Positions 15,539 through 35,229 are shown, numbered from the stretch's first letter. The stretch: 64,000 nucleotides of DNA from Candidatus Heimdallarchaeum aukensis (GCA_021513695.1 CP084166.1:480001-544000); one strand, 5' to 3'. The notes: a model not told the origin generated them from the sequence alone. Made by a program: numbers and translations.

Positions 15539-15572
15539 TATGGAGATTAAAAAAAAAAAAAGGTGATAATAT

Positions 15573-16334: not shown

Positions 16335-16346
16335 ATAACTTATGGA

Positions 16347-16838: not shown

Positions 16839-17073
16839 ATAAAAAAATAACAAAACAAATTTATTGCAAAAATAATTTAAAATTCGCACAAATATTTGGA
16901 TACTTCTTCTTTTTTAAATTCAAATTTTATCAAAAACTTGAAAAGAATGCTAAATAGTCTATTTTTTAAATAAATAGGAAACAAAAAAAGTTTAGACTAA
17001 GTGGTTAGTTTTTGAAGTATAAATGAGGAGAAATAGGAACTGTATAATTTAAAGAAGAATAAAAAAAATAGGA

Positions 17074-17661
17074 CTAATCAACCATAAGTTTGGGAAATTT
17101 TGAAAGTTCCATTAATTTCATGAATTTTTTTCCTTTCTTAAAAATAGTATCTATACATTCAATTATTATATCCAAAAGCTCTTCTACTTTTTCTTTTTTT
17201 ACAGGTTTTAGTCCATGAGCAAGTATTGATTCATTTCTCTCTTTTAAAAGGTCTTTCATTTTGTTGGATGAAGAAAACATTTTCCCAAGATCATCATTCA
17301 AATCGTCTAAAACTAGATAACAATCATATAATCCCAACTTTACTTTTGAACCATTACTTTTTCTTTCTTTGAAATAACTTATACGTTGAGAAGAAACTCC
17401 TAACTTTTCTAATTGCTCTAAGGATATGTCATGGGGAGGTAAATTGTAGGCACTCTTTAATCTATACTGTGCCATAAGTTCTACAGCTCTGTAGAGCCTA
17501 GCCATTGCATCATCAAACTTTTCTTCTTTTAATCGACGTTTTGCGTTATTTAATAAATCTGCAAGAAAATAAAGGTCTTTCTCTATTTTTTTATCACTTT
17601 TATGTAACAAGTCGCACAAAAATTCTTTATTAAAACTATATTCTTTGCCAAGCTGTTTCAT
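17074..17661 (-). pseudogene. Duplicated 3' fragment of csx1 (HEPN half only) created by the 2.7-kb tandem duplication.
   Basis: Identical to the C-terminal 195 aa of the 409-aa Csx1 at 19770-20999. Lacks the CARF domain. The upstream frame is replaced by the repeat junction. Confidence 0.55.
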
Positions 17662-17679
17662 TTTATCAAAAGCTTCTTT

Positions 17680-18234
17680 ATGGTTAAATCTACTAAAATA
17701 TCCAACGAAAAAAGAAAAATGGAATATTTAGCGGGAGTAATCCTTGCTAAAGAACTTTTTTCCAAATATGAAAACATTACCGATTTCAGAAGTATAGAAA
17801 TAAAAAAGAAGAGTAAGGGGCAACCTTACTTTTTCAACAGACAACTAAAAGAAGAAACGGATTGGTATGTTTCTATTAGTCATTCAAATGATTTCGCTGT
17901 AGTCTCTATTGAGAAACAACCAGTAGGAATAGACATAGAAAAAGTAGAAGAAAGAAGTAAAAGTTTCTATGGCGAAGTTTTTTCAGATTATGAATTATCA
18001 AAAATTGCTGATGACCATACTTTAGGAACAAAATATTGGACTGCTAAAGAGTCATTAACTAAAGCATTAGGAGAAGGATTACATATTAAACTAAAAGAAA
18101 TTGAGTTTGGTTACAACGATGGCAAATTTGATCTAAAAAAATATCCTTCTTCTCTAAAACAAGATCAATTGCAGACTTCTATTGAATCTATTGAAGCAGC
18201 AGGTTATGTTGTTTCTAAATGTGTAATAAAATAA
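17680..18234 (+). pseudogene. Duplicated stand-alone copy of the megasynthase C-terminal PPTase domain.
   Basis: Identical to the last 184 aa of ORF 7577-15538 (GIDIEKVEE, WTAKESLTKALGEG). Begins at the repeat junction with a TTG/GTG-type start. Expression is uncertain. Confidence 0.45.
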
Positions 18235-18269
18235 TATGGAGATTAAAAATAAAAAAAAGGTGATAATAT

Positions 18270-19031
18270 ATGTTACAACTGAATTATGATATAAAATTTA
18301 GAAAGGATTTCATTCATGGAATTCTTTATTTGCCGGATGAAGAGGGGCAGTTCCCTTTAGTTATAAGATTGAACGGTTTTCCGGGCAATTCTCCAGAAAA
18401 AGAAGAACAAAGATTAGCAGATATTATCACCCAGAATAATATGGCTTTTTATGCCTTTGACTATGTAGGAGTAAGAAAAAGTACAGGGACATTTAATTAT
18501 TATACGAGTTTGGAAAACATAAATACTGTTATAACAGATTTATCACATCATCCTCGAATTAATCCTGCAAAGATTGCTCTTCTTGGAGAAAGCTTCGGAG
18601 GAGCAATGGCAATAAGCCAAGGAGTAAGAGACCAAAGAATAAAATGTATTGTTTTAAGGTCTCCTGTATATGATACTGAAGTTATTCCTCAAATACCGTC
18701 TTTTAATACTTTAGTTAAAATATGGTCCAGAAACAATCAAATACGTTTCCCTAAAGGAGACATAAGTGAATTATACTACAAACAAACTAATCTTTACAAT
18801 CCTAAAAAAATAGCAAATTTAGTTAATTGCCCCGTAAAATTGATTGCAGGAGATAAAGATGAGTTGTTGGAAGTTAAGGGTTTTAGAGAACTTTACAAAT
18901 GTTTACCACGGAAACTAAGAAAAGGAATTGATATCATTAAAGGAGCAGATCATAACTTTACTAAACAAAAACAGTTTATAGAATTAAAGAGTGAACTTTC
19001 CAGCTTTTTGACTTGTTGCCTTTTAGGGTAA
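18270..19031 (+). CDS. Alpha/beta hydrolase, second identical copy.
   Basis: 100% identical protein to 15573-16334. Confidence 0.55.
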   Translation: MLQLNYDIKFRKDFIHGILYLPDEEGQFPLVIRLNGFPGNSPEKEEQRLADIITQNNMAFYAFDYVGVRKSTGTFNYYTSLENINTVITDLSHHPRINPAKIALLGESFGGAMAISQGVRDQRIKCIVLRSPVYDTEVIPQIPSFNTLVKIWSRNNQIRFPKGDISELYYKQTNLYNPKKIANLVNCPVKLIAGDKDELLEVKGFRELYKCLPRKLRKGIDIIKGADHNFTKQKQFIELKSELSSFLTCCLLG

Positions 19032-19043
19032 ATAACTTATGGA

Positions 19044-19517
19044 GTGCAAAAGATGAAGAAAAAAATAATCTACAACAATGAAGAATACATAATAGAAGCT
19101 AAAGGAGAAGACGAGATAGTAGTGAATAATAAGACTTTCAAAGTTAACTTAAAAGAGAAAAACAAGAATTTTTTCAATATAGAAATTCAAGGAAAGAAGT
19201 TTATTATAGAAGTAAGAGAAGGAGAATTCTATTTAGACGGAGAGAAAATAGAAAAATTATCAATTAGCCCCTATTTTCCACAATTAAAGAAACAAAAACA
19301 AATGATTAACTCTCAAAAAGAAGTAGTAAAAGCACCTATACCAGGAACTATAACTCAAATACTAGTTAAAGAAGGAGATACAGTAAAAAAAGACCAAGAA
19401 TTATTTATCCTTGAAGCGATGAAAATGAGAAATAGAATCTTAACAACCATTGACAAAGGTGTAGTAAAAAAATCTACGTTAGCGAGAATGAAACTGTATC
19501 TCAAGATCAAAAACTAG
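19044..19517 (+). pseudogene. BCCP second copy, with the C-terminus altered by a 1-nt homopolymer-length difference.
   Basis: Identical to 16347-16838 up to ...DKGVVKK. An A7 tract replaces the A8 tract, so the protein ends ...STLARMKLYLKIKN, replacing the last 18 residues of the biotinyl domain fold. Confidence 0.5.
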
Positions 19518-19769
19518 CTATAATTGAAAATTAAATAAAAAAATAACAAAACAAATTTATTGCAAAAATAATTTAAAATTCGCACAAATATTTGGATACT
19601 TCTTCTTTTTTAAATTCAAATTTTATCAAAAACTTGAAAAGAATGCTAAATAGTCTATTTTTTAAATAAATAGGAAACAAAAAAAGTTTAGACTAAGTGG
19701 TTAGTTTTTGAAGTATAAATGAGGAGAAATAGGAACTGTATAATTTAAAGAAGAATAAAAAAAATAGGA

Positions 19770-20999
19770 CTAATCAACCATAAGTTTGGGAAATTTTGAA
19801 AGTTCCATTAATTTCATGAATTTTTTTCCTTTCTTAAAAATAGTATCTATACATTCAATTATTATATCCAAAAGCTCTTCTACTTTTTCTTTTTTTACAG
19901 GTTTTAGTCCATGAGCAAGTATTGATTCATTTCTCTCTTTTAAAAGGTCTTTCATTTTGTTGGATGAAGAAAACATTTTCCCAAGATCATCATTCAAATC
20001 GTCTAAAACTAGATAACAATCATATAATCCCAACTTTACTTTTGAACCATTACTTTTTCTTTCTTTGAAATAACTTATACGTTGAGAAGAAACTCCTAAC
20101 TTTTCTAATTGCTCTAAGGATATGTCATGGGGAGGTAAATTGTAGGCACTCTTTAATCTATACTGTGCCATAAGTTCTACAGCTCTGTAGAGCCTAGCCA
20201 TTGCATCATCAAACTTTTCTTCTTTTAATCGACGTTTTGCGTTATTTAATAAATCTGCAAGAAAATAAAGGTCTTTCTCTATTTTTTTATCACTTTTATG
20301 TAACAAGTCGCACAAAAATTCTTTATTAAAACTATATTCTTTGCCAAGCTGTTTCATTTTATCAAAAGCTTCTTTATGGTTAAATCTATCCCATAAACTA
20401 AAAGAATCAATTAAATTGTAATAGTATTCTTTTGTTTTGTCTCCGTTTAATAATACTATTTCATCTAAATAATTTCGTGCAGCATTATATCGATAATTAT
20501 TGAAAGATTCTTTCATTCTCCTTAACAATAATTTGTCATATACTGAATAAAGACTTTGCTCGACAATTCTTTCAGTACCTGAAAGAACAACACCATCTTT
20601 TCTTCTGCCTGAAATCAAAGTTAGTTTTTTGTGAAAAAGTACTGCAGCGATAGCTGCACTCATAGTCATTGTTTTTGTTCCAGAAGTATAGTCAATTATT
20701 ATTTCAGAATTGGAATACTTGTATATCTCATTCTGAATTAGTTGAAAACAACTATCAAAATCATCAATAGAAGTAAATTGAATAAATTCGTAAGAAGACA
20801 ATTCCTTGTTATACTGTGATTTATGTTGCCTTTCTATCTCCTTTATTGTTTTACGACTGTCTTCAGAACCAAAAAAAACAATATGATCAGGTTTATAGTG
20901 TTCAATACAAACTAGCAGTCCATGAGCTAAACTCTCAATTTTCTTGTCAACGTCCTCCCCTATTGCAGTTCCTACAGTCATAAAAAGAATACGTTTCAT
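19770..20999 (-). CDS. csx1: Csx1/Csm6-family CARF-HEPN ribonuclease (type III CRISPR ancillary effector).
   Basis: N-terminal CARF: MKRILFMTVGTAIG... and IIDYTSGTKTMTMSA (the D-x-T-x-G-T-K-x-M motif). C-terminal HEPN R-x6-H: RNESILAH. 409 aa. Confidence 0.7.
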   Translation of the reverse strand: MKRILFMTVGTAIGEDVDKKIESLAHGLLVCIEHYKPDHIVFFGSEDSRKTIKEIERQHKSQYNKELSSYEFIQFTSIDDFDSCFQLIQNEIYKYSNSEIIIDYTSGTKTMTMSAAIAAVLFHKKLTLISGRRKDGVVLSGTERIVEQSLYSVYDKLLLRRMKESFNNYRYNAARNYLDEIVLLNGDKTKEYYYNLIDSFSLWDRFNHKEAFDKMKQLGKEYSFNKEFLCDLLHKSDKKIEKDLYFLADLLNNAKRRLKEEKFDDAMARLYRAVELMAQYRLKSAYNLPPHDISLEQLEKLGVSSQRISYFKERKSNGSKVKLGLYDCYLVLDDLNDDLGKMFSSSNKMKDLLKERNESILAHGLKPVKKEKVEELLDIIIECIDTIFKKGKKFMKLMELSKFPKLMVD

Positions 21000-21111: not shown

Positions 21112-21690
21112 TTAAATTACTTTGAAACGGCCATAACCTAATGCAGTTTTTGCACCTAGTCCATGAATTTTCAATATGCCTGGCAGTAAGCTATTAATAA
21201 AATTCAAGTCTTCATCCATTTCAGTATAGTTTCTCTTTGGTAATAGCACAATTTGAAACTCTTGTTCAACATCAACAGCAAGAAACGGAATAGGAATAGG
21301 CTTCATCCAATCTCCTGGTGCTTCTTTTTCCAAATAATATTGTGAATAATGAGGAGTAATAATTTCTCCTTTTAATCTTGGAAATTTAGTTGGTAACATG
21401 TCTAAAAATATCATAGAACCAACTTCATTTGAGAGAGTTTTTTGATTTTCTTCTTTTGATAAAGAACCAAAAATTCTCTTTATTTGTTTTTTTTCGTTAT
21501 CGTCGTCCATTAGATCTATTATATAATCACGGATAGCACCTTTCAACGAGCTACCAGGTAGAAAAGGAACACCTAATGTATAGTGCCACAGAAAACCCAC
21601 TTCAATTGGATGTGGAAGACCAACACCTGTAATAAATGGAGTCAAAGTTCTAACATAAATAATTCTTCCATTTCGCTGTTCAGACAACAA
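21112..21690 (-). CDS. cmr6: Cmr6 (Cas7-group RAMP). The frame is actually open upstream to 21933.
   Basis: RAMP signatures: PFITGVGLPHP, FLPGSSLKGAIRDY and a C-terminal G-rich loop HGLGAKTALGYGRF. The ORF track starts at a TTG. The same frame stays open for 81 more codons up to the in-frame stop at 21934-21936, which overlaps the cmr5 stop. No ATG/GTG/TTG occurs in that extension. Confidence 0.6.
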   Translation of the reverse strand: MLSEQRNGRIIYVRTLTPFITGVGLPHPIEVGFLWHYTLGVPFLPGSSLKGAIRDYIIDLMDDDNEKKQIKRIFGSLSKEENQKTLSNEVGSMIFLDMLPTKFPRLKGEIITPHYSQYYLEKEAPGDWMKPIPIPFLAVDVEQEFQIVLLPKRNYTEMDEDLNFINSLLPGILKIHGLGAKTALGYGRFKVI

Positions 21691-21926: not shown

Positions 21927-22223
21927 TCAGTTTTCATTCACCTCAACCTTGGCTTGAGCTAGTTTTTTTAGCCATCCAAGGAACTCTAAAGTTTCTATCT
22001 GTGCAAGAATATACTCATCTTGTGTTGCATTTGTAATGTTATAAATTAAATCATTAGAATCTGTAAAAATATTCACCTTTTTTAACCATGTTTCTATAAT
22101 ATCAACAATTTTTTTATGGGCCTTTTTATCGCCATTATCGGGTTTAGGAGTTGCACTTGCTAGTTCCATTGCAATGGCTTGTCCAAGACCATTCATTACA
22201 ATTGTAGCTGGTAAACTTTTCAC
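21927..22223 (-). CDS. cmr5: Cmr5 (Cas11 small subunit).
   Basis: 98-aa helical protein between cmr4 and cmr6. It carries an NGLGQAIAMELAS-type motif resembling the Cmr5 GLG region. The call rests on position and size. Confidence 0.5.
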   Translation of the reverse strand: MKSLPATIVMNGLGQAIAMELASATPKPDNGDKKAHKKIVDIIETWLKKVNIFTDSNDLIYNITNATQDEYILAQIETLEFLGWLKKLAQAKVEVNEN

Positions 22224-22327: not shown

Positions 22328-23275
22328 TTATTCACCTCCTTTATCTGCATCAATTTTATCTATATGATGAATGATTTTTTCTGCATAATCCAGTTTTACA
22401 TGAAACCAACCTTGACCAACAGTTTCATTTCCTCCGATCTGGAGAAAACAACTATTAGTTAATAAATTGTCCAAAAAATCAATTCCATCTTCCTCAGAAA
22501 AAACTAAGCAATACATTAGAGTATCAGAGGAAATGTACTCTTCGTACCACAAATTTCTGCTTGACTTTGTCTCTGAATTTAATATATTCCTTGCTCGTAT
22601 TTCTAACCCAAAATTTGCGAACCATTTAAAATCATCATTATGAAGTATAACAAGCTGGTCTTTTAGTCTGTTCCTTACATCATCATCGGGTATCATAGCT
22701 GATAATAAATTAGCCAAATTGTCTATACCTTCACTTTCTTCTTTTTCAAATTGCCGTTCTTCAAGAAAAATATATTGTTCATTCACACAAGATAGAGTTT
22801 TTCCTCTTGTCACTTCGGGAATTGTAAATGAATATTTTATTCCTAAGCGTTTTAGGTCTCTTTTCAGTCTTTCTAATATATATGGACAAGTAATCCATCT
22901 ATAATTCGTCAATAAACTTCGTACTGGTAGCAATAGTAAGCGTGCATCAGAAATTAATAATTTTCCAGCAGAATCAGAACTTCCAAAGTACTTATCAACC
23001 TTTTTATTTGTTATATTAGAATTAACACCAACATTCTCATTAGCTAAACCACGCAGTGAGCCTTTTAAACTAGTGCTTGGTATGAAAGGATAACTTGTAA
23101 TTGTTTCACGAGCTACGGGACAATCTACTATTGATGTAGGATGTCCAGTTCCTGTATGAACAAATGTTTCAGCCAACATTTTCATTATTTTCCCTTTTAA
23201 ATTCGACTTCTTTTCATTTTGTTCCATATTAATCACCTCTTTCCCATTTTCCAAAAAGAAATTGTCCAAATCCAA
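22328..23275 (-). CDS. cmr4: Cmr4 (Cas7 backbone RAMP).
   Basis: FIPSTSLKGSLRGL and a C-terminal G-rich loop QIGGNETVGQGWF. 315 aa from the longest start. The true start is probably an internal Met (MEQNEKK or MKMLAETF), because the longest start overlaps the cmr3 3' end by 47 nt. Confidence 0.7.
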   Translation of the reverse strand: MDLDNFFLENGKEVINMEQNEKKSNLKGKIMKMLAETFVHTGTGHPTSIVDCPVARETITSYPFIPSTSLKGSLRGLANENVGVNSNITNKKVDKYFGSSDSAGKLLISDARLLLLPVRSLLTNYRWITCPYILERLKRDLKRLGIKYSFTIPEVTRGKTLSCVNEQYIFLEERQFEKEESEGIDNLANLLSAMIPDDDVRNRLKDQLVILHNDDFKWFANFGLEIRARNILNSETKSSRNLWYEEYISSDTLMYCLVFSEEDGIDFLDNLLTNSCFLQIGGNETVGQGWFHVKLDYAEKIIHHIDKIDADKGGE

Positions 23276-24389
23276 ATTCAGTTAATTTACCTATTTTATT
23301 GGAAACCAATCTTTTTAATGAAGATGTATTTTTTTCATCAAAAAAGAATGTAGACCCTGGAGGAATAAAAGGTCTGACTTCTAGAGGTTCTTTTTTTACT
23401 GCATTCCATCCTCCAATGCGAAGAATATCACCAATGTTAGCACCTATAACCTCAGAACCAAACTTTTTTGACAAAAATGTCATAACTTCATCTAGAGAAT
23501 CTCCTAAATATGCAGGAGTAATAAATGTAATTGTAAAATTATCAGAAACTGTTGAAATAGGGGGTATTTTATCAATTACTGGGAATTCTATTTCCTTGTA
23601 ACTAATATTAGCTATCTTTCCTTCTCCACCTATACGGTTACACCAATTTTCAATTGAGTCAAGTAAATCAATACCATTGACTTTCATACAAAGTACAATA
23701 TTTTCTAACCTTATCATTTGACGCGAAAATAAATTTCCAGTAACTGCAGTATTGGTTGTAGGATCTATTTCAATACCAATCTCATTTTCTTTTTGCCATA
23801 ATTTATTCTCAGAGAGAAAACGAACATTTTTAAGACTTTCAGAAGAAAAGGACAATAATCTTTCTAGATCATCAAATTTAACATAATAATTTTGTAATGT
23901 TTTATAACCATAATTACCACTTCTTCTTGGAAGTAAAATACTCTTTCTATCATGTTTGTCTTTACTTATACTTGACAAATACTTTTGTTTAGAAGGAATT
24001 AAATAATCCAGATCTACAATCTCTTCGTTTTTTTGAGAGGAAATGTGTCCAATTATATGTAAAGGAACAGGAAATAAAGGATGAAATTGATTATCCTCTT
24101 TTAATAATAAGTAAGGACCAAAAAAGTCTAAAGGCCCAAGATCGGTACCATCACCCAATTTACTAATTATATTTTCATCCCATTTACTGCTTCCATCCCA
24201 TCCATAATATCGAGCTAGTAAGGATCTTATTAGTCCAGTAATTGAAAATGGAGATGGTGGAAAAACACTTTTAACAAAATCTGACGAACTATCACTTTTA
24301 TAGAAAGAATAGTTTCCTCTAAAAAACAACCTATCTAAAGGTTCAATTATGAAACACTGTTCCTTAGCCATTTTTATTACCAACCCCAT
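23229..24389 (-). CDS. cmr3: Cmr3 (Cas5-group RAMP).
   Basis: The N-terminus FIIEPLDRLFFRGNYSF matches the Cmr3 IxPLDPLFFRDG signature. 386 aa. Lies between cas10 and cmr4. Confidence 0.7.
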   Translation of the reverse strand: MGLVIKMAKEQCFIIEPLDRLFFRGNYSFYKSDSSSDFVKSVFPPSPFSITGLIRSLLARYYGWDGSSKWDENIISKLGDGTDLGPLDFFGPYLLLKEDNQFHPLFPVPLHIIGHISSQKNEEIVDLDYLIPSKQKYLSSISKDKHDRKSILLPRRSGNYGYKTLQNYYVKFDDLERLLSFSSESLKNVRFLSENKLWQKENEIGIEIDPTTNTAVTGNLFSRQMIRLENIVLCMKVNGIDLLDSIENWCNRIGGEGKIANISYKEIEFPVIDKIPPISTVSDNFTITFITPAYLGDSLDEVMTFLSKKFGSEVIGANIGDILRIGGWNAVKKEPLEVRPFIPPGSTFFFDEKNTSSLKRLVSNKIGKLTEFGFGQFLFGKWERGD

Positions 24390-26373
24390 GTTGATAAAGA
24401 AATTTTATAATATCAAGAAAACTTATAAAAAACTCATTTTCAGAGCTTTCAGGTATATACTCATTATTCTCATCTAATACTCTATATGACCGCTTCATTA
24501 GTTTAATCAATAAGCAAATAGTGGAATCTAATTTTTCGTTATTTAATTTTCTGTTTTCATGAGTAACAAATTCAGATTTTAATACTGTACTCAAATCTTT
24601 TCCAAAATCAGATATCTTTACAACATTTAGAGATTTACTTATTTCTTTATTTTCGTTTAATTTTCTAAAGACATTTCTAATTCTATACAATGCTCCTATC
24701 GAAAGATCGACATTAGAATCATAAAATAATTCAGAAATAAATTTCTCAAAATCATATCCATTTTTCTCAATAGAAGAAATAACGTCAAAAGTTGTTACAT
24801 ATTGATATTCTTTAGTTCCTCCTTTTAATAATGAAATTGCAATACTAGATCGACCATTATAATCTTTTGCAACTTCATCCAAAAGATAATGAGCTTTTTT
24901 CAAGACATCTTGTAAAGGATCATTAAAATGAGCGAAAACAATTCCTGCGGACATTGTTGCTTTTTTAGCATGCTTATCCATTTCTTCAACAAATCTATTA
25001 TTAATTGAAATTGCACATGAAATAACTTTATTTATTGGAACAAAAGCTAGAACATCGTCACCTCCAGCGTAAACAAGTACTCCATTATAATTTCTTACAA
25101 TTTCTTCTACTTCAATTGCAAATTTGGCAAGAATCTTACTAACTTTTTTTATAGCTTCTTTTTCTCCTTTTTCTTTCAATTTTTTGATAACATCACCTAT
25201 TTTATCACCATCCATTATCAGAACAGAGTAATAAGGTGATGGTATTATTTCACACTTATCGTAAATATTATCAACAAGATTTTTAGAAAGTTTTTTTCGA
25301 TATTCTTCGTATTCGGATGGAAACATAATTTTATTCTCATTTTTTAATAAGTCAGTATAATAAAGTTGAGCATCTAACTGAAAGAAAGGTTTGATTGCCT
25401 TTGCATCTTCTGATGCTCCTTCTTTATTGAAATTAAAATCAAACCATTGAGTAACATTAGGTCTTTTCAAATGTGATAAATCTTTGACTTTTTTAGCAAA
25501 ACTAATCAAAGATTTTCTCAATTCTAAATCTGTAGCAGCTTTTTCTTCTAACATGAACAACCAAGGTAAAGCTGCAATATAAACCGTTGAGGGCCAGTTT
25601 AGTATAGTTTTGCTTTTTAGAATTTCTTCTGAACATAAAGGAAACAATCGTTTTATTAATGCAATAGAAGAAAGCCTTTCATCATCTTTTAGTACGTATT
25701 TTAAAATATTTTTTCTAACTCGTTCCCAAAATGCATCTTGCTTATCTTTTTCACTTGTACTTTTTCCTCTGATAAAACCCGATAATTCTTGCCAATTTCC
25801 CATCATTTTACAACGATCACCCTTCTCAACAGGGAAAGAAAAAGGTGACCAAAGTTTAAAGTTAGAGAAATATTTTATTTCTTCTTCATTTTCTACTATT
25901 AACCATCGTATATTCCAAAAATTACTAGTTTGTCTAGCCCAAATCTTCTTTACTTCTGGATATTGTTTTTCTAGACTTGAAAAATATCTATCCCAAATCG
26001 TATCACAAATCCTCAACCATTCATTTCTAACAACAATTTCTGCTTTTTTAGCTAATTGAAAAGGATCTTTGCTTTTAGTTTTTATCACAGCTTGGTTTGG
26101 AATTGAACCTACTTTTGGGACTCCTTCAAGACCTTTGGTTTCATTCTTATCTGATTTTTCTTTTAAAGCATTTATAAAGGAATAAAATTCATTTCCATCT
26201 AGATTAGGCGATTCTATTGTTCCTCCAGAAATCATAAATTCATGCAATGCAACCCCAGTTAAGTAAGAAAGCAAATAAGAACCTACCCATAAATCTTGAG
26301 TCTTTCTAGCTTGTGCAATAAAAGACTGAACTGGGCCTATGGAAAAAATAATTGTAGTCTCATTAGTATCCAT
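24364..26373 (-). CDS. cmr2: Cas10/Cmr2 lacking the N-terminal HD nuclease domain, with an intact GGDD cyclase (Palm) motif.
   Basis: The N-terminus IIFSIGPVQSFIAQARKTQDLWVGSYLLSYL is the typical Cmr2 D1-domain start. VLVYAGGDDVLAFVP provides GGDD. 669 aa, which corresponds to Cas10 minus the ~200-aa HD domain. Confidence 0.8.
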   Translation of the reverse strand: MDTNETTIIFSIGPVQSFIAQARKTQDLWVGSYLLSYLTGVALHEFMISGGTIESPNLDGNEFYSFINALKEKSDKNETKGLEGVPKVGSIPNQAVIKTKSKDPFQLAKKAEIVVRNEWLRICDTIWDRYFSSLEKQYPEVKKIWARQTSNFWNIRWLIVENEEEIKYFSNFKLWSPFSFPVEKGDRCKMMGNWQELSGFIRGKSTSEKDKQDAFWERVRKNILKYVLKDDERLSSIALIKRLFPLCSEEILKSKTILNWPSTVYIAALPWLFMLEEKAATDLELRKSLISFAKKVKDLSHLKRPNVTQWFDFNFNKEGASEDAKAIKPFFQLDAQLYYTDLLKNENKIMFPSEYEEYRKKLSKNLVDNIYDKCEIIPSPYYSVLIMDGDKIGDVIKKLKEKGEKEAIKKVSKILAKFAIEVEEIVRNYNGVLVYAGGDDVLAFVPINKVISCAISINNRFVEEMDKHAKKATMSAGIVFAHFNDPLQDVLKKAHYLLDEVAKDYNGRSSIAISLLKGGTKEYQYVTTFDVISSIEKNGYDFEKFISELFYDSNVDLSIGALYRIRNVFRKLNENKEISKSLNVVKISDFGKDLSTVLKSEFVTHENRKLNNEKLDSTICLLIKLMKRSYRVLDENNEYIPESSENEFFISFLDIIKFLYQHGVGNKNG

Positions 26374-27569
26374 TATATCTCCTCTTTACAATCAAATCTA
26401 TCAAAAAATGAATCTAAAAACGACCAATTTACTGCTAAAGGGACTTCTGTTGAATTTACTATTTTTTTTACTGTTCTATTACGAATTCTGTGTTGTTTTG
26501 TTGCTATAATTTTGAGTTTATTGTTCTGTAAAAATTTGGATTTTAATATCAAACCTATTGCAGCATAATGCTGTTGAACTTTAATGATTTTTATGAAAAG
26601 CGGGCTTGCTCTTCTAGTTGCACTATTTGAAAATGGTGATATCATTACACTTGTTTTATTGCTCTGAAAATAATAATTATGAGGTAAGCCAAAAATAATA
26701 CGTTCAGGATGCTCTTCAATTTTATTTTTATTAGTAAAATCAAGCATTAGATCATGATCTCTCTTAAAGTTTCTCTCAGCTCTTATTCCTCCTGGTAGTT
26801 CTCCACTATCCCCATAACTTCTATATTTTAATAACTCAAATCCAATAGAATTTAACAATTTATTAACATCACTGTCAATTTTTAATAAACAAGCCCTAGA
26901 ATACCTTGAAAAACGGGAATACAGTAAATCATTAATTTGTATCTGGTCTTCTTCTTTAAATTCAGCAAGAAAGTTCTCAATATTAATTTTTAAATCTTTT
27001 ACATTCTTTGATTGGATATATTCTAGCTCATCACCATTTTTTATCTCTTCAATATGAAATGATCCTAACCCTCGTCTAGATCTTGCGCCTATACCTCCAA
27101 AATAACTGAGAGCTATTAGAGCTTTAATAATAGAATTTTTAATGGATTTTTTACATTTTTTATTCAAATTTCTAAAGTAGATATTTATTTTTCCATTAAC
27201 AGGTGGTAAAACATATTCCTTAATATCATCTTTATGTTTTTTAATACCATATGTTAAATAACTTAATCCATATTCATTTTTTCCATATCCTTTAAAATGA
27301 CCCTTTTTGAAGTAATCTACCTCTGCATTTAATATCACCTTAGATTTACCAACGGACTTATCTGTGCTACTGAAAATCATAGTTTCATTACGATATAATT
27401 CATCTATAGTTTTTAGCTTAAAGTATTTCCAAGCTATCGCTCGCCACCAGAATCTTAAAGCCCCTTTAAAACTAGAAAGTCTAAATTCTGCTTTAGACTG
27501 ATCATAGCCGCGTAAAAATAGAGGAGTAACTATTTCAAACTTAACTGAAATATGTTCATACTCTTTCAC
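26373..27569 (-). CDS. cmr1: Cmr1 (RAMP).
   Basis: LSSFKGALRFWWRA matches the Cmr1 S-x-KG-x-LRFWFRA motif. G-rich loop GGIGARSRRGLGSF. The stop overlaps the cas10 start (TAATG-type coupling). Confidence 0.7.
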   Translation of the reverse strand: MKEYEHISVKFEIVTPLFLRGYDQSKAEFRLSSFKGALRFWWRAIAWKYFKLKTIDELYRNETMIFSSTDKSVGKSKVILNAEVDYFKKGHFKGYGKNEYGLSYLTYGIKKHKDDIKEYVLPPVNGKINIYFRNLNKKCKKSIKNSIIKALIALSYFGGIGARSRRGLGSFHIEEIKNGDELEYIQSKNVKDLKINIENFLAEFKEEDQIQINDLLYSRFSRYSRACLLKIDSDVNKLLNSIGFELLKYRSYGDSGELPGGIRAERNFKRDHDLMLDFTNKNKIEEHPERIIFGLPHNYYFQSNKTSVMISPFSNSATRRASPLFIKIIKVQQHYAAIGLILKSKFLQNNKLKIIATKQHRIRNRTVKKIVNSTEVPLAVNWSFLDSFFDRFDCKEEI

Positions 27570-27836
27570 AATTATGACACCGTCAGCAATACAATTATTA
27601 TTTTATCTATTGTTTTTTATTTATAAGTTTAGTCTAATATTTTAAACAAAGTGTAATTTTAAATTTAAAATTTAAAAAAGCAATTATTTATTTATGATAG
27701 TCCTCATTACGTTTTATTTTTAGTAAAAATAGTTGTTTTAGTTAATCTTTTTTAAATGTAAAAGATAAATACTAATTTTTTCTATTAAATGGTTTAAATA
27801 CTTTTTTAAAGAAAGTATTACCTAATACATATAATT

Positions 27837-28391
27837 ATGTGTGAGCTAGTATATGTAACATTAGCTGGTTCTTCTAAAAAAGCTATTGTAAACTCAATAT
27901 ATTTTACAGTAAAAGAATTTATTAAAAAAAATATTAAATCAGTTGAAAAATTGTCAATTTTGATAATAAAATCAAATACAAGTCCAATAAAAAAAGAGTC
28001 TATAAAAACTTCTATAACAGAATATTTTAGTCTATCAAAAGAATTATCGGATATCAAAATTGAATTTTTCGAAGAAAAAGTAGTTCCAGAGCATATGTTA
28101 ATAGATATTTTTAAAGAGATTCAAAATGAACTTGTTCCTTTTTTAGACAATAATCAAAATAAGCTAATTATTGTAGATTTGACCGCATCAAGAAAAATAA
28201 TGTCGATAGGTCTCACTCTAAGTATTATTGAGTATTGGAAAAAGAAAAAAAACAACAATGTTTTTGTGTCCTATTACTTACTTAAGAAATTTTACGACAA
28301 TAAAGAGAAAATAACTATAGAATTATTTCCTGATGAATTCTCCGTTGAAATATGGTCTATCAAAGATTTAGAGGTGATCTTTAGTGAATGA
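27837..28391 (+). CDS. Small stand-alone CARF-like protein (candidate cyclic-oligoadenylate sensor or ring nuclease), transcribed divergently from cmr1.
   Basis: 184 aa. Begins ELVYVTLAGSS (CARF-like strand-1 motif) and contains LIIVDLTASRKIMSIGL, resembling the CARF D-x-T-x-G-x-K-x-M core. The call is based on motif reading only. Confidence 0.4.
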   Translation: MCELVYVTLAGSSKKAIVNSIYFTVKEFIKKNIKSVEKLSILIIKSNTSPIKKESIKTSITEYFSLSKELSDIKIEFFEEKVVPEHMLIDIFKEIQNELVPFLDNNQNKLIIVDLTASRKIMSIGLTLSIIEYWKKKKNNNVFVSYYLLKKFYDNKEKITIELFPDEFSVEIWSIKDLEVIFSE

Positions 28392-28980
28392 TAAAGAAAC
28401 AGAACTATATTTTGCTCAGTTTTTTGAAAAATTTCTAAAAAACAAAGAAATTATCATTAAAGGTTACAATGAAAGCAAAAATAGTGAATTTGAAATATCT
28501 TTCTCTGAACCGAAATTAATTTTCACTGGTGGTTTGCTCAATAGTACCATTCGAGATCTACTCTTTAATATAGCTATAGACAAAAATCAATTTGCTAAAA
28601 ACTATGAAGAACTAATTAGTGCAATTAATGAGGAATATATCATCGCAAAAAAGGATAATCGAATTCTAGCTTTGGGTATTGATACCAATATAATCTATTC
28701 AGGAGTTCTACTTACTGGATTATACAAACGTTTAATGAAAAAATTAGACTGGAAATTCCCTTTAATTGTAATCTCACATACCACTTCAGAAGAAATTCAC
28801 TATAAACGAGCTTCTAAATATAAAAATCCAACTTTAAATCAATTTAAAGCTAATATTCAGAAACAATCTGAAAATATTCAAAGTTTATTAAATAAAGTAT
28901 TTGCTGAAGAAGGAATGAATATTTCAGAAAGTGTTTATAGAAATCTACTTGATAGAGATGGTAGATTAGGCCATCTCTAG
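28384..28980 (+). CDS. Hypothetical protein, translationally coupled to the CARF-like gene (8-nt overlap).
   Basis: 198 aa. No clear family. Contains ILALGIDTNIIYSG, which is weakly PIN/NYN-like. Operon partner of 27837-28391. Confidence 0.3.
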   Translation: MNDKETELYFAQFFEKFLKNKEIIIKGYNESKNSEFEISFSEPKLIFTGGLLNSTIRDLLFNIAIDKNQFAKNYEELISAINEEYIIAKKDNRILALGIDTNIIYSGVLLTGLYKRLMKKLDWKFPLIVISHTTSEEIHYKRASKYKNPTLNQFKANIQKQSENIQSLLNKVFAEEGMNISESVYRNLLDRDGRLGHL

Positions 28981-29200
28981 GAGTATACAAATTGCTCTTA
29001 CATCGCATTAAAATGAATACAATTGTAATAAAATCAATTCACCCTTATTACTCTGGAAAGTTTTCCAATAATGGAAATGTTCCTAGAGAAATTGGTGCAA
29101 TATATGATTCTTTAGTTTGCATTAATTCATAACTCTAGAAGAAGGATTTTTGAACAAGATTAAATTAAAAAAAAAAAAGGATATAGAGAAAGTTGAGTTG

Positions 29201-30718
29201 TTACCAAATGAAGTCTACTATTAAGTTTCCAAGTGTCCAAGTAGATGGTAAAATACCAACTGATGCCAGAGCACACCATGCATCATACGCAAATCCAATA
29301 CCATACACAGGTTCTAAAGCATCACCAATACCAGCATCAATAACATTTGCAACAATAGTTTTCATTTCACTTGTAGAAATAGTACCGTCGTCAACAAGAG
29401 CGATTGCAACAGAAATAACACCTGTAGCAAGCATAGATATACATGGTGAAAAATAACTCGTTTTAAGAGCGTTTTTTAGGATATTTCTTATTTCTTCTTC
29501 AGTTATAGTGTCAGTAGGGGATACCTTAAACAAGTTTCCAATTAATTCATAGGTAGCATCTTTTATGTGTGCACCTGTGCTCCCTATTATTTTATCAGTG
29601 AAGTCTCTTAATGCTTTTGCCATTTTTCCTGCGGTTTCTGTGGAATGAGAAAGATAATAACTATTACAGTATCCCTTAATGTCTTCAATGACTTTTAGAG
29701 TATTATCTACAAGTTGATAACTATTCAATGAAGCTTTGATATCAGAGGTATCTGATGTTCTATCGCTAGCGAATGCCATTATAAATTCCCTGATTTCTCC
29801 AGAACCATCACCCCAACTAAATACATCTTTTGCTAGTATTTTCCATTTAAGGGGTCTGTGGGCGTAAGAAGGATTGTTTACTGATATCGTGAATTCAAGA
29901 GTTTTTTCTCCAGGATCTGGATTGGAAGAGCTATGTCTGTCCCATAATTGTGCTATATACACATTTTCATTATTAACAGCATCGTAGTAACCCAAATACA
30001 CATCAAGTTGAGTCCAGTCTGAGTATGATATCCTTGTCTTTACATATATATAATCAACATATACATTATCTGGTACGTAATAGTTATATATTGAAGCATA
30101 AGCCATAAAGGGATCGTCTAATTCTACTTCATTGTGATAAGTACTATCGAAGTAATAAGCATCTCTTGATACTGCTACAGAACCTTCACCCCCCTCACCG
30201 CCATATGGACTGTTTGTTTCATACTGACTATTTCCGCCTATTCCAGTTGTAATCGCGATAGACCAATAATCGATATATCCTTTATCACCGCTAGCACAAT
30301 CTTCTACGCGTAATTTCCATGTACCATAACAGTTGAATCCTTTAAAATAACTTGTAATAACGAAATCCTGATGGATGTCATCTGAGCTACCACCTTCTCT
30401 GTCCCAAATTTGATAAGTTAACCCACTAGGACTGACAACCCATATTTTTAGGTCTCCAATCCATGTATGAATAATGCTCACGTAAACTGAAACAGTATCT
30501 ATAGAATCAGATTTTGAGATATATATATAGCTTTCTGTTGTAGAATGATCATAGATATTATAGTTTGATCCATTGGACCCCTGTGTACCTGCAGCACTTG
30601 TAGCGCTAGTTGGCATTATGAATGTATTTTGAGGAATCACTGTTACTATCATTAATGCTAATATAGACAGACTTATTAAGTAGATTTTTGATTTAGATTT
30701 TAATTTCATGTTATCCAT
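29201..30718 (-). CDS. Secreted protein with a proprotein-convertase P-domain (pre-peptidase C-terminal-like) but no protease domain.
   Basis: Signal peptide/TM at the N-terminus (LISLSILALMIVTVIP). HTWIGDLKIWVVSPSGLTYQIW...GTWKLRVEDCASGDKGYIDYWSIAI matches the P-domain GDLxIxLxSPxGT...GxWxLxVxD...G.LxxWSL pattern. Confidence 0.5.
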   Translation of the reverse strand: MDNMKLKSKSKIYLISLSILALMIVTVIPQNTFIMPTSATSAAGTQGSNGSNYNIYDHSTTESYIYISKSDSIDTVSVYVSIIHTWIGDLKIWVVSPSGLTYQIWDREGGSSDDIHQDFVITSYFKGFNCYGTWKLRVEDCASGDKGYIDYWSIAITTGIGGNSQYETNSPYGGEGGEGSVAVSRDAYYFDSTYHNEVELDDPFMAYASIYNYYVPDNVYVDYIYVKTRISYSDWTQLDVYLGYYDAVNNENVYIAQLWDRHSSSNPDPGEKTLEFTISVNNPSYAHRPLKWKILAKDVFSWGDGSGEIREFIMAFASDRTSDTSDIKASLNSYQLVDNTLKVIEDIKGYCNSYYLSHSTETAGKMAKALRDFTDKIIGSTGAHIKDATYELIGNLFKVSPTDTITEEEIRNILKNALKTSYFSPCISMLATGVISVAIALVDDGTISTSEMKTIVANVIDAGIGDALEPVYGIGFAYDAWCALASVGILPSTWTLGNLIVDFIW

Positions 30719-30910
30719 TTCTTCTCACCTGTCGTAAGTAGAGGCATCCTCATACTCAAATGGGATGCCAATTTATATTTCACTACCGTTCTTTAAAAAT
30801 CAATTGTGCTTATAAGCAAAGCCTAATCTTGTTTTAATCACCATCAAGAACTTTTATGAATATAAAAAGAAGAAAGCTTTTTATTGTTGTTATCATATTA
30901 AAATTTATTA

Positions 30911-33541
30911 GTGAGGTTCACAGCAGCAAATAAAATATTATTGTCTCTTTTATTCAATGATTGTGTTCATATGTCTAATTCCCATCAATATAATGTTAGC
31001 TATTATGCTACACAGCGTGGAATAGCTGAAAGTACAGGTATTCCTCTGACAAATATCCCTAGAACCCTAAAAATGTTAATTAAAAAAGGATTTGTAGAAC
31101 AAAGTATGGGGTATACAAAAGATGCAATAAGAAGAAGAAAAGTGTATTTTCTCACAGAAATTGGAAAAAAAATGGCACAAAACCTTTACCATGAGCTATT
31201 AGAGCAAGAAATTACAATAATTAATAAACACGGTAAGAGTGAATTACATCCATTTAATGAAGTAGCGAAATTATATAATGTAGACGTTATAAAGATACTT
31301 AGAAATTTGGATTTGCAAGGAAATATTATGCTGGAAGAGCTTGTTCAAAATAACAATGAGGCTAATAAAGTTTATTTTCTTAATTATACACCAGAAGAGA
31401 ATTTTTTTTTCGGAAGAAAGGAAGAATTAGAAAAAATCAGAAGATTTATTGAACACGAACACAAAAAAGTTATAGCTGTATACGGTATTGCAGGTATAGG
31501 AAAGACCTCGTTGATATTAAAAATAATGCAGAATTATAGAAAGAATTACAATATTTTTTATTATAGATTACACGAGTGGGACAGCTTACGAAGTGTGTTA
31601 ACTTCATTATCTGACTTTTTAAGTAGGCTTGGAAAGAAAAGTTTGAGAAAATATTTGAATAATAACAGACCTTGCCTTGATGAAGTTCAAGCAATATTAA
31701 GAAAAGAATTAATGAACGTTAATTCTCTGTTGGTAATCGACGAAGTTCAAAACATTGCGAGCGATGAAATAGTTGATTTACTAAAATATCTTATAATAAT
31801 CTTTTGTGCTGAAATTGAGAATTCAATCCTTATTTTCGCCAGTAGAAAGAGGGTTAATTTCTACTCAATGAAACATACTCTAAAACGAAGCATCGGAGAA
31901 ATTGTTTTGAATGGGCTGGATAGGGAATCAAGTAATAAAATAATTGAGAAGAATATAAATATAAGAAACTTTGAGGAAATTTATAATATTACACAGGGAC
32001 ATCCCCTTGCTCTTAGATTCATAAGTAATTGCAATACGTTAAAGAAAGGAGAAAAAAACATCCTGAATTATGCATTCAATGAAATATATGACAATCTCTC
32101 ACCAAAAGAGAAAGAATTGTTATTTTTTCTCTATACATGTCGATATCCAGTGACAACTCAAATGCTTTTAGATAATAACTTTTCTTATGAAACTTTCCAA
32201 AGACTCTATAACAAAAGCTTTTGTTTTAAAACAGTTTTAGGTAATGTGCAACTACATTATATCCTTCGCAGCTTCCTTCACAAGCTTTTCTCACATAGTA
32301 TATCAGAAAACACGCAAATAGTAACTAACATAAAGATTGCAGAATATTATAGAAAAAATAAAACACCCTTGAACATTATTGCTGCTATATATCATTATTT
32401 TCATGCAAAAGAACACGAACAAGCTATAAAGCTAGCGATTCAATATGAGGATCTAATTATCGAAAATGGTTATTCTCAAGAGTTGATAGATATTTTAGAA
32501 ACGTTTGAAAAAGATATTATTTTAAAAGAAGATTGGAAGAGTATACTACAACTCAAAGGTAACGCGTATAATGCAATAGGAAAAATAAATTATGCGTTAA
32601 ATTTATACTTACAAGTCTTGGAATTATGCAAGAATACAGAAAAACCAGAAATAGAGCTTTTATTGGAAATAGGAAAATTGTATTTGAAAAAAAACGCATT
32701 TGATATTGCTTTAGATAAATATATCGAATGTTTAAGAAATGCAAAAGAAAGTGATAATAAAGAGAACATTGCTTATAGTTACTATTATATAGGAAAAACC
32801 TACTGGAAAAAAGGAAATCTTAAAAAATCGATTAGATGTTTGAAGAAAGCTCTTAGGTTCAGTAATCAAACCAACAATCTACACCTTAAAGGAAAAATCT
32901 ACATGGATTTTGCGATGGTATATTCTCTCAGAGCAATGTGGCAACAAGCAATAAATAGTTCTCTTCTAAGTCTTGAATTATTAGAAAGAACAGGCAATTA
33001 CTATGAGATAAGTAAGGCGTATAATAATATTGGAGTAATCTATTCCTCTAGGGGAGATTATGAGAAAGCAATTTATTACTACGAAAAACAATTAAGATGT
33101 GCAGAGAAATACGACTTTATACGAACAAAAGTTTATGCTTTTTGTAATATTGCATGGGCAATTGCTAATAAAAATAATGTATCTAAACAAGAGTTAGAGA
33201 AAGCAATAGGTTTATGCTCACAAGCTTTTGATATCTCACGACATCTTAAGGATGATAGGATAACAGCAGGTCTCTACACAGCTTATGGTTGCTTATTTGC
33301 AAAAATGCAAAAGTGGGCAAAAGCTATCCATTACTTTAATCATGCAATCAACTACTTAGAAAAAGAGAAGGATATCCTTCTCCTTCCTCGAATATTTTTT
33401 TGGTTTGGAAAAATCTATAAAGAGAAAGGCGATATAGCCAATGCTAAGAAATATTTTAACAGAGCTTATAAATATTATAAAAGAAGAAAAAACCGAATAA
33501 GAATTAAAGAGATTGAAGTTGAATTAGAAACATGTGTTTAG
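30911..33541 (+). CDS. STAND-type P-loop NTPase with an N-terminal winged-helix (MarR/PadR-like) domain and C-terminal TPR repeats.
   Basis: Walker A GIAGIGKTSL, Walker B SLLVIDEVQN, multiple TPR-like repeats in the C-terminal 350 aa (AYNNIGVIYSSRGDYEKAIYYYEKQL etc.). The N-terminal about 90 aa looks like a transcriptional-regulator wHTH. The real start may be the ATG at 30971. Confidence 0.55.
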   Translation: MRFTAANKILLSLLFNDCVHMSNSHQYNVSYYATQRGIAESTGIPLTNIPRTLKMLIKKGFVEQSMGYTKDAIRRRKVYFLTEIGKKMAQNLYHELLEQEITIINKHGKSELHPFNEVAKLYNVDVIKILRNLDLQGNIMLEELVQNNNEANKVYFLNYTPEENFFFGRKEELEKIRRFIEHEHKKVIAVYGIAGIGKTSLILKIMQNYRKNYNIFYYRLHEWDSLRSVLTSLSDFLSRLGKKSLRKYLNNNRPCLDEVQAILRKELMNVNSLLVIDEVQNIASDEIVDLLKYLIIIFCAEIENSILIFASRKRVNFYSMKHTLKRSIGEIVLNGLDRESSNKIIEKNINIRNFEEIYNITQGHPLALRFISNCNTLKKGEKNILNYAFNEIYDNLSPKEKELLFFLYTCRYPVTTQMLLDNNFSYETFQRLYNKSFCFKTVLGNVQLHYILRSFLHKLFSHSISENTQIVTNIKIAEYYRKNKTPLNIIAAIYHYFHAKEHEQAIKLAIQYEDLIIENGYSQELIDILETFEKDIILKEDWKSILQLKGNAYNAIGKINYALNLYLQVLELCKNTEKPEIELLLEIGKLYLKKNAFDIALDKYIECLRNAKESDNKENIAYSYYYIGKTYWKKGNLKKSIRCLKKALRFSNQTNNLHLKGKIYMDFAMVYSLRAMWQQAINSSLLSLELLERTGNYYEISKAYNNIGVIYSSRGDYEKAIYYYEKQLRCAEKYDFIRTKVYAFCNIAWAIANKNNVSKQELEKAIGLCSQAFDISRHLKDDRITAGLYTAYGCLFAKMQKWAKAIHYFNHAINYLEKEKDILLLPRIFFWFGKIYKEKGDIANAKKYFNRAYKYYKRRKNRIRIKEIEVELETCV

Positions 33542-33562
33542 TTTAACTTTTGTAAGTTATTT

Positions 33563-33838
33563 ATGCAATTTTCATTGTTTACTTACACAAACAAGTTGAT
33601 ATTAACAAAAGATAAGCAATTATATTCTCTGTTAAAGAGGACTGGAATACGTAGCGAATATATGGAGCTACCTAAATCAAGAGAAATAGCCAATAAAATT
33701 AAAATAACATACAATCAGTTTTCATATCTTGCTCGAGAATTGTTAGTATTATCTCCTTATTTAATAATAGAAGTAGATAATAAATCAATAGTACTAACAA
33801 TGAATTGGTTTGGACATGAAAAAGAAAAAATGGTATAG
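33563..33838 (+). CDS. Small hypothetical protein.
   Basis: 91-aa ORF in AT-rich context. No recognisable motif. Confidence 0.2.
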   Translation: MQFSLFTYTNKLILTKDKQLYSLLKRTGIRSEYMELPKSREIANKIKITYNQFSYLARELLVLSPYLIIEVDNKSIVLTMNWFGHEKEKMV

Positions 33839-33932: not shown

Positions 33933-34301
33933 TTATAATTCTTCTAATTCATATTCTGTAACTTCTTTTTTAAATTCTTCTTCAGTTAATAGTACAACAT
34001 CAAAATCTAAATCTTCTATTTTCATATTAATAACATTGTATGAACTACCAATTTCAATATGAGCTTTAGGAAACCCATACTTGAGATTGGATGCAATCAT
34101 AGGATAAATATTCTTTTTAGGAGGATCTCCTGCAACAGTAAATATGATGTCTAAATCACTCTTATTACGATGATTCCCTCTTCTTCTTGAACCAGCTCTT
34201 GCTATTCCACTAACTCTAAGTCCAGTATTGTTTTTTATGAAATTTCCAATACTTCTCCACAACTTTGCATATCTCTGTTCAAATTCAGGTCTTTCAGCCA
34301 C
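33933..34301 (-). CDS. Minimal nucleotidyltransferase (MNT, Pol-beta superfamily). No cognate HEPN partner is visible.
   Basis: GSRRRGNHRNKSDLDI matches the GSxxxGxxxxxSDxD NTase motif. 122 aa. Confidence 0.6.
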   Translation of the reverse strand: MAERPEFEQRYAKLWRSIGNFIKNNTGLRVSGIARAGSRRRGNHRNKSDLDIIFTVAGDPPKKNIYPMIASNLKYGFPKAHIEIGSSYNVINMKIEDLDFDVVLLTEEEFKKEVTEYELEEL

Positions 34302-34531: not shown

Positions 34532-35229
34532 GTGGATGAGAAAACGAGAGAAAGCAAAAAAGGAAGAAAAAGAATAGCAAAAAGATGGGTGATTCTGGCT
34601 TTAGCGATTATTGCTAGAATAGACGGGATAGCTTGGAGGAAGTTAGAAGAAAAGTTGTCTCTATGTGATTTTTTGATAGAAGAGGGGTGGATGAGGAAGA
34701 TTCCTTCTAAATCTACTTTTCATGCTGTATGGAGAGCAACAGAAAGTAAAATCTTAGAGCAGTGGATAATAGATTTAGGGGGAGAAATAGTGAGAAAAAA
34801 AGGGTTGAAAGCTATGGCGGTGGACAGTTCAGGGTTTAAAATCCATCAAGCTTCTGTTTGGCGTTTTCTCAAATGGTCAAGAGGGACACTAAAGAAAACC
34901 TCTAAACTAAACTTCTCTTGAAGATACACCTTATAGCTGGTTTACCCTCCAGAGCTATAGTCTCTCTAGCACATTCTGCTAGTAACACTCACGATAGTAA
35001 AGTCTTCGGTTTGTTATGGCAAAAACTTCCTTCTGCACTCTTAAGACCGCTCTTGAGATTCTATGGTGACTGCGCCCACTGGACAGAAAATATCGTCGGT
35101 CTTCTTAGCCAACATTCCTTTTTTCCTGTTATTCCCCCAAAAAGTAATGCTCGTTATCCCTCTCCTCCTCCCCTTGGACCAATAGTTCAAGCTCATCGTC
35201 TCTACCCTGTTCTCTATCGTTTATCATAA
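34532..35229 (+). mobile_element. Decayed IS4/IS5-family DDE transposase remnant (two frameshifted ORFs) in a locally GC-rich stretch.
   Basis: ORF1 carries the IPSKSTFHAVWR N-terminal motif of IS5-like transposases. ORF2 carries KIHLIAGLPSRAIVSLAHSASNTHDS (cf. HLxVDxxGLPLxxxxTxANxHD), with the first catalytic Asp lost. GC content of about 34.9-35.4 kb is clearly higher than its surroundings. Confidence 0.5.

Follow-up and report, generated by a model that had tools for sequence, protein, structure and literature searches.

Two small overlapping genes, here called A and B, lie divergently beside a type III-B CRISPR cmr operon in a stretch of 64,000 nucleotides from the genome of the Asgard archaeon Candidatus Heimdallarchaeum aukensis (GCA_021513695.1, CP084166.1:480001-544000; hereafter the window). 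Our analysis suggests that they are the two halves of a split effector, in which a CARF sensor and a PIN-like nuclease are encoded by separate genes, and that the copy in the window does not function as a nuclease. We estimate the probability of this reading at roughly 70%. In the best reading of the sequence and profile data, the pair would be a split variant of the known class of CARF-PIN effectors responding to cyclic oligoadenylate (cOA), and not a module of a new kind.

A preliminary description of the locus, made from the sequence alone, had presented A and B as a divergently transcribed two-gene operon next to cmr1. Its measurements were reproduced: two open reading frames (ORFs) at 27837-28391 and 28384-28980 with the given sizes, an 8-nt overlap (GTGAATGA), and an AT-rich spacer of 267 bp towards the cmr operon. 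The position beside cmr1 and the divergent orientation also hold, but not the implied integrity of the operon, since B is a disrupted gene whose homology runs on to 33838, well outside the 27837-28980 interval to which the feature had been confined. The elements of the locus are as follows.

27837-28391, + strand: gene A, 184 aa (UJG41239.1, K9W45_01955), open in the H. aukensis genome
28384-28980, + strand: gene B fragment 1, GTG start, 198 aa (UJG41240.1), codons 1-198 of a PIN-like nuclease gene of ~359 aa
28974-28977, + strand: 2-nt insertion 'TC' in gene B, in the window and haplotype L001 compared with haplotypes L006 and L007 (DNA alignment)
28977-29120, + strand: gene B fragment 2, codons ~198-245 (48 codons), out of frame, with the third PIN acidic residue in 'AIYDSL'; aligns with the B family
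~29131-33562: 4,432-bp insertion splitting gene B, present in haplotypes L001 and L002 and absent from L006 and L007
29201-30718, - strand: gene within the insertion for a secreted protein with a P_proprotein domain (Pfam)
30911-33541, + strand: gene within the insertion for a winged helix-turn-helix (wHTH)-STAND ATPase-TPR protein (Pfam)
33551-33838, + strand: gene B fragment 3, codons ~245-339, with the fourth PIN acidic motif 'LILTKDK'; the final ~20 codons are gone
27570-27836: spacer of 267 bp (84% A+T) between the divergent genes A and cmr1, presumed to carry promoters for both directions

A CARF-fold protein without a fused effector

Gene A encodes a true CARF domain with no effector domain fused to it, in line with the preliminary description; PADLOC profiles, the family profile, the AlphaFold2 (AF2) model, and Foldseek all agree on this point. 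The protein matches ten PADLOC CARF models (best E value 3.3e-5), among them the minor clade CARF_m1, membership in which is defined here by PADLOC profile names alone. With the single sequence as query, the top match in the Protein Data Bank (PDB) was the CARF motif of Card1 (E 0.12), and a profile of the A family matched the Crn1 ring nuclease Sso2081 with E values between 3e-4 and 9e-4, followed by Sis0455, Sso1393, Csm6, and Card1, with a weak match to SiRe_0806 (E 0.3). The Pfam CARF models stayed below threshold for gene A and for A', its paralog in H. aukensis; the A homolog of locus L008 exceeded the gathering score of CARF_Card1 (25.5 vs 24.6). No NCBIfam family matched gene A at E≤1, including the Crn1 equivalog NF040581 (cas_Crn1). 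A word-indexed protein search returned only near-identical copies of gene A and no matches for gene B.

The AF2 model of gene A, built from a seven-sequence alignment (pLDDT 79.6, pTM 0.79), has a b-a-b-a-b-a-b-a-b topology. Both of the CARF-like signatures noticed earlier are present and placed in loops of this model, with 'GSS' of VYVTLAGSS following beta1 and 'LTASRK' of DLTASRKIMS following beta4, and conservation within the A family peaks at the CARF ligand-loop motifs. When the model was compared with the PDB using Foldseek, all of the top 50 matches were CARF domains, led by Card1 (2e-7) and Sso2081 (2e-6) and continuing with Cdn1, Csm6, Cam1, Cad1, and Can2, so that structure prediction assigns the CARF fold to the 184-aa protein. 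We also considered that A and B might together be a divergent paralog of the CARF-HEPN gene of the neighbouring cmr operon, and rejected this idea: only the generic CARF motif aligns, with no significant pairwise similarity.

Gene B is the stump of a disrupted gene

For the 198-aa product of gene B, no family had been recognised before. It corresponds to the N-terminal portion of a PIN-like nuclease gene of ~360 aa, not to a whole gene. An exhaustive HMMER scan with B as the query found relatives of 364, 366, and 389 aa, of which B covers only the first ~200 residues; the family members P0004, P0005, and P0006 range from 364 to 389 aa. The 90% cluster of B contains an intact allele of 359 aa (P0018) from a sister metagenome, the remaining members being short fragments. 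Searching the window with P0018 by tblastn placed its residues 1-198 at 28384-28977 with 96% identity, residues 198-245 at 28977-29120 in a different frame (+3) with 81% identity, and residues 245-339 at 33551-33835 with 84% identity. The TC insertion shifts the reading frame of B into a TAG stop at 28978-28980, and a 91-aa ORF at 33563-33838 is the tail of the same gene. The 4,432-bp insertion between the second and third fragments is 99.95% identical to that of L001 and 96.5% identical to that of L002. Neither a transposase or recombinase gene nor terminal inverted repeats were found in it; its junctions show a possible 2-nt duplication ('AT').

The intact relatives suggest what was lost. 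In the alignment of the B family, D100 (within LG-L/I-DTN), E137 (S-x-E-x-H-Y), a GR-L/I-G motif, and D246 (I-Y-D) are invariant, and a T-x-D-K/N motif is common to the intact members. Together, D100, E137, D246, and T-x-D form the D-E-D-D pattern expected of PIN nucleases. We regard the assignment of the B family to the PIN nucleases as likely. The weak PIN-like DTN strand proposed for B finds support through its intact relatives; a predicted strand of B ends with GIDTN. The AF2 model of P0018 is of moderate quality (pLDDT 67.5), with residues 134-195 poorly modelled. Foldseek with this model found nothing at E≤1e-3; the complex of SiRe_0806 with cyclic tetra-adenylate (cA4) occupied ranks 2, 3, and 6, and further PIN domains included DIS3L/Rrp44, TTHA0540, and Nmd4, with unrelated HAD/Rossmann folds scoring comparably.

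Fragment 1 in the window spans the N-terminal domain, D100, E137, and the helical insert. Of the acidic residues, this 198-codon ORF keeps D100 and E137 only, the third being out of frame and the fourth 4.4 kb downstream, so a complete catalytic PIN domain in a single reading frame is not present in the window copy of B.

The helical insert of the B family (residues ~154-208; from 28843-28980 onward in the window) separates the second PIN acidic residue from the third. In a PDB profile search, this segment, including 'EGRLG', weakly resembles the Arc repressor, a ribbon-helix-helix (RHH) protein (E 0.011-0.06); Pfam gave no RHH match in the insert, where the AF2 model has its lowest confidence. 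The C-terminal 'RDGRLGH' of the truncated B was examined as an Rx4-6H HEPN motif and discarded, because in the family alignment it falls on a GRLG motif inside a longer PIN-like protein.

Split architecture, distribution, and decay of the pair

The connection between the two genes comes from PADLOC profile PDLC01973 ('CARF_m1--CARF_PIN'), a fused profile of 465 positions. Its N-terminal part (positions ~4-130) is the best match of the A-family proteins of L008 (7.6e-10) and L012 (5e-9), and it is also matched by A' (P0008, 7.1e-9) and by the A-family protein of L013 (5.5e-6). B-family proteins match its C-terminal part: P0006 at 235-323 (2.6e-6), P0018 at 355-444 (4.2e-4), and P0004 at 338-417 (9.3e-4); P0005 and the B fragment of L013 gave no match to this profile. 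Because the two families match opposite parts of one fused profile, and the genes are adjacent in every lineage found, a split sensor-effector pair is the best among the interpretations offered in the preliminary description. Its suggestion of a new kind of module does not stand, since fused CARF-PIN effectors are already known: the accessory proteins Msed_1167 and ST0035 were catalogued by Shah et al. 2019 (PMC6546367), a list of cOA-activated effectors includes PIN RNases (PMC12669027), and SiRe_0806 of Sulfolobus islandicus is deposited in the PDB as 9JXW and, with cA4, as 9JXX. A literature search for SiRe_0806 found no paper.

Compared with the fused CARF-PIN proteins (PDLC01973, CARF_PIN PDLC01068, ST0035, Msed_1167, and SiRe_0806), the A/B pair agrees in its two modules and in their order, CARF followed by PIN-like, and like the window pair the fused proteins are tied to type III loci. 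In contrast to them, A and B are separate genes in every lineage found, with gaps of -8 to +13 nt, and their combined length is about 540 aa instead of 370-465 aa. B carries an additional N-terminal domain of ~90 aa and a helical insert of ~100 aa inside the PIN domain. Sequence similarity to the fused proteins is low, no Pfam PIN model reaches threshold, and the window copy is disrupted. The Csx1/Csm6 CARF-HEPN effectors, including the local gene of family TIGR02710, likewise combine a cOA-sensing CARF domain with an RNase and are encoded with Cmr genes, but their RNase is a HEPN domain fused to CARF instead of a PIN protein, and pairwise comparison with A and B shows no significant similarity.

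At least five lineages have the pair with both genes visible, always as two adjacent genes. The first is the cmr-linked locus itself (the window, L001, L002, L006, and L007), with the 8-nt overlap (-8 nt in the window and L006). The second is a paralogous pair in H. aukensis, in which A' (P0008 = UJG40390.1, K9W45_11180; 179 aa, 34% identical to A) is followed after 10 nt by a 366-aa B' (L003 9451-11101; also L004 and L009-L011). Three sequencing runs of one enrichment all show this pair intact. The island around it resembles a defence island and includes two AAA_11/AAA_12 helicases, two PLDc_2 nucleases, a Csa3-like CARF-wHTH gene, a radical-SAM gene, and several genes of unknown function. 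The third and fifth lineages (L005 and L013) have 4-nt overlaps. In the fourth (L008 2-3783; Logan SRR31660269), the genes are 13 nt apart and directly followed by an SMODS/OAS1_C CD-NTase and a Prok-E2_B protein, so that this locus appears to be an operon resembling cyclic oligonucleotide-based antiphage signalling systems (CBASS) that uses the split CARF-PIN as its effector. An A-like gene also lies at the contig end of L012. Two scans of a genome-contig collection, one of a viral-contig collection, and one of the metagenome scans gave no matches, nor did a tblastn search of plasmids and phages with P0018. Homologs were found near type III systems, with L007 repeating the cmr linkage of the pair, and the expected association with type III loci holds only for the cmr-linked lineage; it is not exclusive, because other copies lie in the helicase/PLD island or beside the CD-NTase. 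The two cyclase contexts, Cmr with a GGDD-bearing Cas10 and the CD-NTase, point to nucleotide signalling.

The cmr-linked copy is a decaying relic in H. aukensis. In haplotype L002, gene A lacks 56 nt (window ~28178), with the loss of DLTASRKIMS, and carries W173*, and gene B has additional deletions of 1 and 32 nt, while 4.1 kb of flanking coding sequence contains no indels. In L007, which lacks the 4.4-kb insertion, A is missing another 56 nt (window ~28027) and B 68 nt, whereas the six indels found in the cmr genes all have lengths divisible by three. In L001, a poly-A run in A is shorter by 1 nt, truncating the protein to 158 aa, possibly by an assembly error. L006 is the only haplotype with an intact B. 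The contrast between the frame-breaking indels in A and B and the intact neighbouring genes argues for genuine, recurrent inactivation over chance sequencing errors. A decays together with B, suggesting that the usefulness of A probably depends on B. We also observed that the A deletions in L002 and L007 are both exactly 56 nt at different positions; this might be a coincidence or an assembly or k-mer effect.

Several observations weigh against reading A and B as a split CARF-PIN effector. Gene A of the window itself has no match to PDLC01973 and matches the stand-alone CARF_m1 profiles only weakly (5e-4 and 2.7e-3). Pfam PIN models either missed the B family or stayed below threshold (PIN_3 E 0.22 for B; PIN_4 E 0.044 for P0006). 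For the fused CARF-PIN protein ST0035, Shah et al. reported only weak binding of cA4 and no induction of RNase activity (PMC6546367). There are no cas genes, cas10 included, within 10 kb of the paralogous A'/B' pair. Finally, the reference genome retains an intact A despite the broken B, and A may have a role of its own.

Such a role could be that of a stand-alone Crn1-like ring nuclease, or of a cOA sponge tuning the Csx1 response, with the PIN gene being irrelevant. Like A, the Crn1 proteins (Sso2081 and Sis0455) are small, at ~180 aa, and carry a CARF domain on its own; they are the top PDB sequence-profile matches of A (Sso2081 at 3e-4), Sso2081 is also among the best fold matches, and the beta4-loop motif is closely similar, D-I-T-G-G-R-K-S-M-S in Crn1 and D-L-T-A-S-R-K-I-M-S in A (D-I/L-T-G/A-G/S-R-K-x-M-S in common). 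A Csx1-type effector is encoded at the locus, where apart from this candidate no recognised ring nuclease is in view, and loci with Csx1 frequently include a ring nuclease (PMC12409355). However, the Crn1 equivalog profile does not match A, two A-family members are closest to the CARF domain of the fused CARF-PIN profile, and a PIN gene directly follows A wherever downstream DNA exists, including loci with no cas10 in view and one with a CD-NTase. Moreover, A is frameshifted or partly deleted in three sister haplotypes (L001, L002, and L007) beside intact cmr genes, which would be unexpected for a needed regulator. We therefore consider the ring-nuclease interpretation, one of those offered in the preliminary description, to be weak, and on the sequence comparisons a ring nuclease or sponge seems unlikely.

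A cyclic-nucleotide-independent module, toxin-antitoxin (TA)-like or regulating transcription, in which the Arc/RHH-like insert of B would bind DNA and the CARF-like protein would be its partner or antitoxin, seems more improbable still. PIN domains are typical of TA toxins, some copies of the pair have no cyclase in view, and the B-family profile does match Arc-repressor chains over residues ~154-208. This match is marginal, however, in a segment that Pfam does not recognise as RHH and that AF2 models least confidently; the conservation in the A family is highest in the CARF ligand loops, and two independent contexts hold oligonucleotide cyclases, Cas10 and SMODS. Least probable of all, we would give very little credence to A and the 198-aa B as an intact operon, with B a new small partner that would not need the remainder of the PIN domain. 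In favour of it, the reference genome keeps both ORFs open with the 8-nt overlap preserved, and fragment 1 is better conserved relative to P0018 (96% at the amino-acid level) than fragments 2 and 3 (81-84%). Yet the comparative data contradict it: the stop codon of B was created by a 2-nt insertion, homology continues out of frame and then 4.4 kb downstream, all diverged relatives and the single intact allele are 359-389 aa long, the stump keeps two of the four conserved acidic residues, and sister haplotypes have accumulated extra frameshifts in B.

The neighbouring operon, the rest of the window, and a possible mode of action

The operon on the other side of the spacer is a complete type III-B signalling locus, comprising cmr1-6, a GGDD-bearing Cas10, and a TIGR02710 CARF protein (Pfam, PADLOC, and NCBIfam). 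All six cmr genes listed below were matched by these three databases.

26373-27569, - strand: cmr1
24364-26373, - strand: cas10/cmr2, with GGDD within 'YAGGDDVLAF' of the translation
23229-24389, - strand: cmr3
22328-23275, - strand: cmr4
21927-22223, - strand: cmr5
21112-21690, - strand: cmr6
19770-20999, - strand: csx1-type CARF-HEPN effector, the last gene of the cmr operon (NCBIfam TIGR02710, 1.1e-62)

No CRISPR array was found in the 64-kb window, and Wu et al. 2022 described a single array-free cas operon in these genomes (PMC8813620).

Two tandem duplications lie upstream. At 5393-9378, 1,993 bp are perfectly duplicated (5393-7385 = 7386-9378, 100%) within giant polyketide synthase (PKS)/fatty acid synthase-like ORFs (2998-7518 and 7577-15538), either a very recent event or an assembly artefact; the assembly of Wu et al. 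2022 combined SPAdes with Nanopore scaffolding (PMC8813620). At 14995-20388, the copies of a duplication of ~2,697 bp (14995-17692 and 17691-20388) differ by two 1-nt indels and cover the 3' end of a PKS-like gene, a 253-aa hydrolase-like gene, a biotinyl/lipoyl-like gene, and the 3' third of csx1, with 17074-17661 being a copy of the end of csx1 (19770-20999). This duplication is possibly an assembly artefact, and L007 begins inside the region. Downstream of gene B, an insertion of ~1.29 kb relative to L006 (34395-35684) contains a frameshifted DDE transposase (IS4/IS5-like; ORFs 34532-34921 and 34918-35229). Just upstream of it lies a small nucleotidyltransferase gene (122 aa, 33933-34301, - strand), which directly follows the intact PIN gene in L006.

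For an intact pair, we propose a mode of action by analogy with the fused homologs and with the PDB entry titled 'SiRe_0806 in complex with cA4'. Binding of target RNA by Cmr would activate the Cas10 cyclase, and cOA made by the GGDD-bearing Cas10 would bind a dimer of the CARF subunit. The CARF subunit might then switch on the PIN subunit held in a hetero-oligomer, and the activated PIN nuclease would probably degrade RNA. Such a CARF-PIN effector could provide a second output of the abortive or dormancy type, in parallel to Csx1. At the window locus, only the CARF gene and the 198-codon stump are still open, and this copy can no longer act as a nuclease; the intact paralog K9W45_11180 with its 366-aa partner gene could carry the function and may respond in trans.

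CARF effectors are mostly single polypeptides. We might speculate that the A and B families constitute an uncharacterised two-subunit nuclease gated by cyclic oligonucleotides, in which a free CARF dimer activates in trans a separate PIN enzyme with an N-terminal docking domain and an Arc-like insert, shared by type III (Cas10) and CBASS-like (CD-NTase plus E2) systems of Asgard archaea, and whose toxicity would explain the repeated, independent knock-outs in natural populations. We regard this extended proposal as tentative and rather doubtful as a whole. If the split form is indeed conserved, it would be a natural system for studying signal transfer from CARF to a nuclease across a protein-protein interface, and it would show the shuffling of sensors and effectors between type III CRISPR and CBASS-like systems.

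For the annotation of the genome, we recommend labelling K9W45_01960 together with the 91-aa ORF (33563-33838) as parts of one disrupted gene. In wild Heimdallarchaeum, an accessory effector beside an intact Cmr operon has been lost in several independent ways, which fits either a cost of its carriage or redundancy with the paralogous pair.

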